Shown here piece by piece: positions 7,204 to 8,150 of a DNA stretch of 12,045 nucleotides (positions within the stretch are counted from its first letter, which is position 1; each line of letters opens with the position of its first letter). The position numbers were made by a program, and so were the translations under genes. Source of the stretch: a virus. The notes under the pieces are model-generated. The model was not told where the DNA came from. It made no database searches and was given only the letters and a program-made list of their open reading frames with translations. The DNA lies in UHGV virus genome UHGV-0169025; one strand, given 5' to 3'.

Positions 7204-7929
7204 ATGACTTTTAAGAATGTAGCAAACATCGGATCCGTTGTCACGGATAAAACCATTGACAGCCAAAGTCTTCTGATGATGGTTAATGAAGCTCGCAAGT
7301 TATGTGGAGAGCCATCAGTACGTAACAACAAATTCATCGAGAAAATTGAGGATGAATTGGAGGGCGAGACCTACACAAAAAGTGTAGGTCGGAAAAACGG
7401 GGCTGACATTGATGTTATCTCCATGACTATCAAGCAGGCGCTTCGTGTTGCTGCTCGCGAATCTAAAGCAGTTCGCCGCTCACTGGTAGACCAACTTGAA
7501 AGTATGCAAGAAGCGCACATTAAAAGCGGTAAATCAGCGAGTGGACTTGTTGAGTATCGTCAAGCGCGAACATTGAAAATGACGGTTGAAGCTGTTACCA
7601 ATCTGTTCGATCTGATGCCAAATCTTGCGCCGGAAGCAAAGCAGACTGCTGCAGCAAGCATAATCAACCCGCTCGTTGGTTTTAATGCAATACCTCTTCC
7701 GGCAATAGAAGAGCATTACTACTCAGCAGGGGAGGTTGCAGAGCAGCTTGGAGTAACGGCTAACAAGATTGGTCGCATTGCTAACGCAAACAACCTCAAA
7801 ACTGAGCAGTACGGGAAGTTCTTCCTGGATAAATCGGCGCATTCCAGCAAACAGGTAGAGGCGTTCCGCTACAATGCGGAGGGTGTTAAAGCACTACAAC
7901 ACCTGATTCATGGGAGCAATGTTGCATAA
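7204..7929 (+). CDS. Phage antirepressor-like protein with C-terminal KilA-C (ANT)-type domain
   Basis: Start ATG 7204 with SD AAGGAA (7192-7197, 6-nt spacer) is preferred over ORF-track start 7153. C-terminal region YYSAGEVAEQLGVTANKIGRIANANNLKTEQYGKFFLDKSAHSSKQVEAFRYNAEG resembles the KilA-C / antirepressor C-terminal domain as I recall it. N-terminal half unassigned. Confidence 0.7.
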   Translation: MTFKNVANIGSVVTDKTIDSQSLLMMVNEARKLCGEPSVRNNKFIEKIEDELEGETYTKSVGRKNGADIDVISMTIKQALRVAARESKAVRRSLVDQLESMQEAHIKSGKSASGLVEYRQARTLKMTVEAVTNLFDLMPNLAPEAKQTAAASIINPLVGFNAIPLPAIEEHYYSAGEVAEQLGVTANKIGRIANANNLKTEQYGKFFLDKSAHSSKQVEAFRYNAEGVKALQHLIHGSNVA

Positions 7930-8150
7930 TGGCAAAGAAAAGATATGGCATTATGCCGCCAAGAATCAAAGGAAGAGCCAGGGTAAAAGGAGATGCTGGA
8001 AGGTATCACATTCTTGGAGTTCTGTGGCATGAGAGAGCTTTAATTTTAAGTAGACCTCATGGGTACATTGAAAAGGTATCTATAGATAGAGTAGAGATTC
8101 TTCCCCTTACACCTGAAGAAGAAGAAACTTACGGACTTTTTGATAACTAA
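7929..8150 (+). CDS. Hypothetical small protein (73 aa), basic N-terminus and acidic C-terminus
   Basis: ATG overlaps the upstream stop (TAATG at 7927-7931), suggesting translational coupling. Sequence MAKKRYGIMPPRIKGRARVKGDAGRYHILGVLWHE...LTPEEEETYGLFDN. Many AGA/AGG arginine codons and AT-rich DNA. Followed immediately by a terminator. No family recognised. Confidence 0.55.
   Translation: MAKKRYGIMPPRIKGRARVKGDAGRYHILGVLWHERALILSRPHGYIEKVSIDRVEILPLTPEEEETYGLFDN

Follow-up and report, generated by a model that had tools for sequence, protein, structure and literature searches.

Results

The DNA analysed is a stretch of 12,045 nucleotides (nt) of UHGV virus genome UHGV-0169025, hereafter the window, and this report concerns a small open reading frame (ORF) of 73 amino acids (aa) on its plus strand, at positions 7929-8150. 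The window is a piece of a P22-like (Lederbergvirus-type) prophage. Genes for ejection and DNA-transfer proteins (50-5144, plus strand) are followed on the minus strand by the genes for a sieA-like membrane protein (5166-5837) and a Mnt-like ribbon-helix-helix (RHH) protein (5855-6154). Then comes a rightward series consisting of an Arc-like gene (arc63, 6212-6403), an ORF for an Ant-type antirepressor with Bro-N and P22_AR_C domains (6393-7115), a gene encoding 241 aa that starts at ATG 7204 (7204-7929) and the 73-aa ORF. To the right lie a second Arc-family gene (8165-8422, minus strand), the tailspike gene (8555-10729, plus strand) and the integrase gene (10838-12031, minus strand). The interval bounded by the ejection-protein genes and the tailspike gene is known as the 'ant moron' or immunity I (immI) region. 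It is the most fluid part of the late operon in P22-like phages; ten types were counted in sixteen genomes, and several of its genes have no known function (PMC2629481). The block of 241-aa gene, 73-aa gene, mnt (minus strand) and tailspike gene is also present in phage JEP4 (MT740315), with 97.6% DNA identity.

The original prediction, made from the letters of the window, described the 241-aa gene as KilA-C-like. That label could not be kept: the 241-aa protein matched no Pfam family at significance, and its sole match was PHROG 1726, labelled 'anti-repressor' (E 6e-102). Existing annotations of the gene are 'KilA protein' in JEP4 and 'hypothetical protein' by the Prokaryotic Genome Annotation Pipeline.

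The 73-aa ORF starts on the stop codon of the 241-aa gene. In the sequence TAATG at 7927-7931, the TAA of the 241-aa gene (7927-7929) shares its last base with the ATG of the ORF (7929-7931), and a Shine-Dalgarno-like GGGAG is located at 7912-7916, 12 nt 5' of ATG 7929. The ORF ends with TAA at 8148-8150. Six nt past this stop begins a hairpin (8157-8178, AAACCCGC-TTAATC-GCGGGTTT) with an 8-bp stem that contains 5 GC pairs, followed by TTTCTTTTCT; the hairpin has a folding energy of -12.8 kcal/mol (z = -3.8), and none of 200 shuffled sequences was equally stable. A GC-rich hairpin with a U-run that outperforms its shuffles, this is an intrinsic (rho-independent) terminator (8157-8188, plus strand), and it forms the end of the operon. 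The start on the upstream stop codon, the strong terminator within 10 bp and, from these two, the position of the ORF as last cistron of the immunity-region operon were all as originally described.

The same is true of the charge pattern and base composition. The isoelectric point (pI) is 11.9 for the basic N-terminus (residues 1-25) and 4.05 for the acidic tail (residues 56-73), with 9.45 for the whole protein. The ORF is AT-rich, with a G + C content of 0.392 overall and 0.274 at third codon positions (GC3), and all 8 of its arginine codons are AGA or AGG, whereas the 241-aa gene has a GC3 of 0.448 and uses AGA or AGG for none of its 11 arginines. This gap in composition points to a different origin of the 73-aa ORF. 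Comparable AT-richness was found in the sieA-like gene and in the tailspike gene (AGA or AGG for 24 of 28 arginines, GC3 0.32), so that the composition of the ORF marks a mosaic joint and is not unique in the region.

The ORF had been called an orphan without a recognised family. Its product is, however, a plain member of PHROG 4977, matching the profile over its full length (residues 1-73 on positions 1-73 of 73; E 1e-53, 180 bits). An identical protein in RefSeq, WP_001085631.1, is annotated as hypothetical protein. A full HMMER pass over 1.8 billion representatives recovered remote homologs at 30-45% identity. A subsequent profile search, with E-values reaching 1e-28, yielded approximately 79 homolog clusters in Gammaproteobacterial mobile elements, from Serratia, Pseudomonas, Stutzerimonas, Klebsiella, Salmonella and Citrobacter, all annotated as hypothetical. 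The remote homologs from Pseudomonas, Serratia and other genera in turn matched the PHROG 4977 profile at 1e-9 to 1e-11. In an alignment of 63 members P10 and W33 are invariant, and M1, Y6, G7, M9, A17, G21, V28, G30, R42, I52 and V55 are conserved in at least 90%. The N-terminal KYGxMPP motif is conserved across the family, so this segment is a family feature and more than a charged tail. PHROG 4977 is a family without a Pfam or NCBIfam model, a solved structure or an assigned function.

In a phage collection searched by tblastn, the enteric type was found only in JEP4 and a Pseudomonas member only in one jumbo phage (NCTB). Back-translated patterns gave no relative in the GTDB species-representative genomes, and a literature search on the family and on functional work in the ant-moron slot returned general immI or ant moron descriptions only. 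One family member, P0015 (192 aa), joins a PHROG 9154 domain of unknown function at its N-terminus (E 4e-23) to a PHROG 4977 domain (residues 132-190), the sole domain fusion seen for the family.

Selection on the ORF was assessed in 44 copies, namely those of the window, JEP4 and 42 IMG/VR loci. These comprised 17 distinct DNA sequences with 23 variable sites, of which 15 were at codon position 3 (P = 0.0017). The changes were synonymous at 16 sites and non-synonymous at 6, over 48 synonymous and 171 non-synonymous sites, a ratio of non-synonymous to synonymous polymorphism (pN/pS) of 0.105 (binomial P = 5e-7). Judged from this comparison, purifying selection on the 73-aa ORF is strong. The ORF at 7929-8150 is a real gene and codes for protein.

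Three database variants (P0003, P0004 and P0006) carry compensated frameshifts at positions corresponding to 7929-7990, by which residues 2-19 are recoded before the sequence rejoins the conserved core. The indels are located in an A-rich stretch and a GGG run, and P0004 starts at a TTG (7922) in a frame that overlaps the stop of the 241-aa gene. These variants may be sequencing errors or tolerated N-terminal variants, despite the family-wide KYGxMPP.

An AlphaFold model built on the 63-sequence alignment had a mean predicted local distance difference test score (pLDDT) of 88.8 and a predicted template modelling score of 0.70, with strands at residues 16-19, 26-32, 37-41, 47-51 and 55-58 and a helix at 62-71. 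The same topology was obtained from a shallower alignment (pLDDT 71.5). By this prediction the product is an 8.5-kDa SH3/Tudor/KOW-like five-strand barrel (residues 16-58) with a variable acidic C-terminal helix (62-71), and its closest known fold is that of the SH3-like small beta-barrels (Tudor, retroviral integrase C-terminal domain, SH3, NusG/Spt5 KOW). The remote-homology search and structure prediction that had been proposed as checks on the ORF thus led to distant relatives in PHROG 4977 and to a confident model. Two candidate relationships were tried and rejected. Homology to CsrA/RsmA had been considered by eye from a GD..LGV..VS.R.EI pattern and the same order of secondary structures; the pattern is restricted to the enteric subfamily and the hhalign probability was 0.13. 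Homology to KOW/NusG (NusG/Spt5) was ruled out at the sequence level (hhalign probability 0.2).

To relate the ORF to the gene upstream we used a panel of 80 IMG/VR loci that encode a homolog of the 241-aa protein. The ORF was present in 40 and absent from the other 40. In 15 of the loci without it, the stop of the 241-aa gene is followed by a 17-nt spacer, CATTTTATAATGAAAAC, and then by an identical hairpin; these loci keep the same terminator, Arc-family gene and tailspike, some of them with a 98% identical 241-aa protein. The two states amount to a 209-bp difference between otherwise near-identical loci. Alleles of the 241-aa gene that are 98%, 91-92% and 88% identical to that of the window were each found both with and without the ORF, and fixed differences between the states occur only in the final 21 nt of the 241-aa gene. 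Here all 40 ORF-bearing loci read CATGGGAG(T/C)AATGTTGCATAATG. The C-terminal HGSNVA* is spelled GGG AGY AAT GTT GCA TAA when the ORF follows, which creates the GGGAG, and GGC TCA AAT GTG GCG TAA in the 15 loci described above; GGGAG is present in none of the 40 loci without the ORF. At some ORF-bearing loci, such as L049 and L050, an alternative hairpin with a T-run lies 3' of the ORF.

At synonymous sites the end of the 241-aa gene (its final 21 nt) has diverged in step with the cassette, a pattern that favours an association of long standing. Of the recent acquisition that had been proposed for the ORF, the different origin is supported by the composition relative to its neighbour; 'recent' is not supported.

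Among complete E. coli genomes (n = 5426) the 241-aa gene was found in 89-91 and the ORF in 54. A homolog of the 241-aa gene with no ORF behind it also occurs in Klebsiella phage phiKp_30. Conversely, all 42 enteric-type copies of the ORF in IMG/VR, as well as the copy in JEP4, are directly behind a 241-aa gene with TAATG and GGGAG. At the remote homolog loci examined no 241-aa or Ant homolog was found nearby, and the homologs of Klebsiella, Serratia, Pseudomonas, Stutzerimonas and Salmonella carry Shine-Dalgarno sites of their own. The dependence therefore runs in a single direction and is a matter of expression: the ORF relies on transcription and translation of the 241-aa gene, and as proteins the two can do without each other. 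Together, the 241-aa loci without the ORF and the lone remote homologs contradict an antitoxin-like or obligate-partner role. It had been stated beforehand that absence of the ORF from close relatives with conserved flanking genes would count against it, and such absence is what was found; it refutes the essentiality of the gene and leaves its reality intact.

The only strong rightward promoter-like site upstream of arc63, ant, the 241-aa gene and the 73-aa gene is a Pant-like sigma-70 promoter at 6156-6183 (plus strand, TTGACA-16-CATAAT, consensus 11/12), whose function is assigned by analogy with P22 Pant (PMC2629481, PMC12111858). It stands back to back with a leftward site, as in P22 Pant / Pmnt. 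A consensus scan, which cannot prove absence, gave no other plus-strand promoter-like sites between 6200 and 8150. In the predicted fold of 7895-7960, GCAUAAUG (7924-7931) pairs with CAUUAUGC (7950-7957) to form an mRNA hairpin over UAAUG (7924-7957, plus strand). Such a hairpin, which is no more than suggestive, would make translation of the 73-aa gene depend on ribosomes finishing the 241-aa gene and would suit reinitiation by them. A stop/start overlap combined with a ribosome-binding site inside the upstream gene is characteristic of coupled cistrons, and both TAATG and GGGAG are invariant in all intact copies.

A candidate antisense RNA of the sar type, approximately 76 nt long (7134-7209, minus strand; promoter-like site at 7244..7216, terminator at 7168..7142), spans the Shine-Dalgarno site and start codon of the 241-aa gene and would, via coupling, control the 73-aa gene too. 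Its hairpin and A-run at 7168..7142 are conserved in all 241-aa loci, irrespective of the upstream gene; in the most divergent loci (L122-L124, 69% aa identity) there is a different, fully compensated stem, GCCAATAG/CTATTGGC. A second sar-like unit is located between arc63 and ant (6400-6478, minus strand), with a promoter-like site at 6512..6483 (TTGGAA-18-TACAAT with an upstream TG). It would produce an RNA of approximately 70 nt with two hairpins and a U-run (-35 kcal/mol, z = -6.2, with 0 of 200 shuffles as stable), complementary to AAGGAAACTAACATG. This complementarity suggests that the real start of ant is ATG 6477 (MSIVAK..., 212 aa) and not 6393. When 5000-9000 was searched against Rfam, the one match was to symR, below threshold and in the 6400-6478 unit; 7134-7209 matched no family. 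A terminator-like minus-strand hairpin in the 5' end of the 73-aa ORF (7961..7946) was also considered as the end of an antisense RNA and is treated as chance (-6.8 kcal/mol, z = -1.2, with 27 of 200 shuffles as good and no promoter nearby).

With the P22 arc-ant operon and its sar antisense RNA (Liao 1987 and Wu 1987, cited in PMC2629481 and PMC12111858) the window shares a rightward Pant-like operon, Arc/Mnt-type RHH flanks and antisense-RNA-like units over antirepressor ribosome-binding sites. The window differs in having two tandem antirepressor-type genes, each with a candidate antisense RNA, and the coupled 73-aa gene.

All remote homologs examined are in accessory regions of mobile elements. 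In Klebsiella, Serratia and one ENA metagenome contig the homolog follows large ejection-type proteins in podovirus-like prophages, and at the Serratia locus an ORF6N-domain gene is located two genes downstream. Pseudomonas homologs lie among runs of small unknown genes. On Stutzerimonas and P. aeruginosa plasmids or integrative and conjugative elements (ICEs) the homolog is part of a same-strand, operon-like block with an SprT-like protein. Several of these contexts are usual places for entry-phase or establishment genes and anti-restriction genes, of which ArdC-type functions are an example, to go by a part of PMC7213743.

The block on the Stutzerimonas and P. aeruginosa elements (L134/L135, L140 and L141) is conserved and contains 98-aa family members. 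One strand encodes an orphan cytosine methylase, a PAPS-reductase-family protein and an orphan N6 methylase, the opposite strand the family member together with the SprT-like protein and two or three uncharacterised ones; an S-adenosylmethionine-dependent methyltransferase and a DEAD/DEAH helicase are close by. The make-up of the block resembles that of a leading-region or anti-restriction island.

In Salmonella, the same 70-aa family member (4001-4213) was found in two loci, L132 and L133, with near-identical flanks (49 of 50 nt upstream, and approximately 35 nt downstream including a hairpin). At one locus it is flanked by chromosomal genes of the LacI and EamA types; at the other its neighbours are a resolvase gene, the defence genes SLATT, ThsB-TIR and CAP12-TIR, a RelB/YafQ toxin-antitoxin pair, Hha and ProQ. 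The presence of this member in two unrelated settings suggests a very small mobile unit.

Discussion

The 73-aa gene has several properties of a moron: it lies in the interval from the ejection-protein genes to the tailspike, is present or absent among syntenic relatives and is distinct in composition from its neighbour. The same slot is used by cargo of unknown function next to mnt/arc/ant-type genes in other P22-like phages (P22 hkcC and 59a, epsilon34 genes 14 and 15, HK620 hkcB; Villafane et al. 2008, PMC2629481), which is likewise variable among syntenic phages, has no morphogenesis role and is unlike its neighbours in composition. No sequence relationship between the 73-aa gene and any of these genes was looked for or seen. 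It also differs from the classical, independently expressed moron in that it seems to have no promoter of its own and rides the antirepressor operon by a stop/start overlap.

The reading that we favour, and consider somewhat probable, is that the gene is optional cargo of the E. coli P22-like ant moron, expressed together with the antirepressors, and that it encodes an autonomous small binding protein acting on a macromolecule of the host or of a competitor. It would be the closing cistron of a Pant-type operon (arc - ant - 241-aa gene - 73-aa gene). Ribosomes would begin its translation by termination-reinitiation at UAAUG, aided by the GGGAG in the final codons of the 241-aa gene, and non-antiterminated transcripts would end at the hairpin at 8157-8188, before the tailspike gene. 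In P22-like phages, Pant drives the immI genes early in infection until Arc represses them, and transcription from PLate covers them as well (PMC12111858); by analogy we infer the same timing for the 73-aa gene. The protein would then appear along with the antirepressors, in a burst right after DNA entry or on lifting of Mnt/Arc-type repression, and late read-through transcripts could supply more of it. Since the 73-aa and 241-aa proteins are mutually dispensable, the former probably acts alone. The contexts of the remote homologs, taken with the timing of a burst from Pant, make a small autonomous binder acting soon after entry our best guess, possibly as an anti-defence or host-takeover accessory factor at entry or establishment.

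Several points weigh against this reading. Sequence searches of Pfam, NCBIfam, PADLOC and the PDB with the 73-aa protein, the 63 family members and the neighbours of the remote homologs gave nothing significant; there is no homolog of known function. An anti-defence or establishment role is weakly inferred from the neighbourhood in a few remote homologs, whose neighbours are mostly uncharacterised. The adjacency of all enteric copies to the 241-aa gene leaves room for a facultative functional link with its product, and the predicted start-codon hairpin folds no better than its shuffles (z = -0.5). In addition, 2 of the 54 ORF-bearing complete E. coli genomes have 1-nt deletions in the core, with neither copy annotated; together with the frameshifted N-termini of the three database variants these indicate that loss of the ORF is tolerated.

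A bolder form of the favoured reading would make PHROG 4977 an unrecognised family of SH3-like effectors, expressed by phages, plasmids and ICEs in the first minutes after they enter a cell, in which KYGxMPP and an aromatic barrel surface disable a defence or control protein of the host. We regard this as speculative and rather improbable; if true, the family would be a new anti-defence or establishment factor common to several kinds of mobile elements.

That the protein instead binds the 241-aa antirepressor-like protein as its dedicated chaperone, adaptor or inhibitor (an 'anti-antirepressor') and tunes its strength, with coupling setting the stoichiometry, we consider unlikely. Protein pairs are commonly coupled, the enteric ORF is joined to the end of the 241-aa gene by TAATG wherever it occurs (IMG/VR, JEP4 and the E. 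coli genomes), and the final 21 nt of that gene travel with it. Yet every allele class of the 241-aa gene exists in both states, and the ORF is missing from half of the panel and from approximately 40% of the E. coli genomes with the 241-aa gene. The two proteins also do not co-vary, the ORF products being 96-100% identical against 88-99% for the linked 241-aa proteins, and the remote family members have no 241-aa homolog near them.

Slightly less likely still is a small nucleic-acid-binding regulator, with a basic tail on an SH3/KOW/Sm-like barrel, that tunes the expression of immI or tailspike, or host transcription and translation. The overall pI and that of the basic tail would suit such a protein, as would the nearest folds, which include DNA- and RNA-binding barrels (the retroviral integrase C-terminal domain, NusG/Spt5 KOW and Sm-like proteins), and a regulatory region rich in repressors and antisense RNAs. 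A positive net charge is not family-wide, however (Pseudomonas P0035 is approximately neutral in a count by eye), the conserved positions are aromatic, glycine and proline and not basic, and the hhalign comparisons revealed no sequence similarity to KOW or CsrA.

We give little credence to a decaying hitch-hiker, a transcribed leftover without current function. The frequent absence of the ORF, the two frameshifted copies in complete genomes and the rare codons, which make up 20% of its codons, would be expected of such a leftover; strong purifying selection, core motifs kept across genera at 30-45% identity, and a Shine-Dalgarno motif, overlap and a terminator in every intact copy would not. 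The toxin-antitoxin-like pair, with one of the 73-aa and 241-aa proteins toxic and the other its antidote, began as an impression from two overlapping genes of which one is small and of mixed charge, and is largely refuted by the presence/absence data, as the 241-aa gene stands alone in many near-identical prophages (including approximately 35 of approximately 90 complete E. coli genomes) and family members stand alone elsewhere, while the small gene is the downstream one and seems to lack a promoter or operator of its own, the predicted SH3-like barrel is no known antitoxin fold (RHH, helix-turn-helix, AbrB or Phd), and neither protein has a toxin-antitoxin or defence match among the hidden Markov models of Pfam and PADLOC.

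That a small hypothetical gene in a known region of gene flux is real, optional and independent of its neighbour is a routine result. It does remove a tempting toxin-antitoxin or 'partner' annotation, and it delineates a compact family outside Pfam, with an SH3-like barrel and KYGxMPP, across phages, plasmids and ICEs of several Gammaproteobacterial genera. Its members are often located at sites of entry-phase or anti-defence genes, which makes them cheap candidates for anti-defence screens. The two antirepressor-type genes, each with a candidate sar-like RNA, and the coupled gene at their end are a possible model for layered control of immI.

Two further observations concern the neighbouring genes. 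The second Arc/Mnt-family RHH gene (8165-8422) points towards the 73-aa ORF and away from the tailspike gene, so that the immI operon is bracketed by two RHH repressor genes. Its stop codon (8165-8167) sits within the terminator hairpin, and its conservation is 99-100% whether or not a relative carries the 73-aa ORF; P22 itself is not known to have a gene at this position. In one IMG/VR prophage (L115, 3001-3591 and 4674-4955) the 241-aa gene is broken after residue 197, and a second, divergent C-terminal copy (48% identity) follows approximately 1 kb on, before the Arc-family gene, which is another sign of recombination inside the 241-aa gene.

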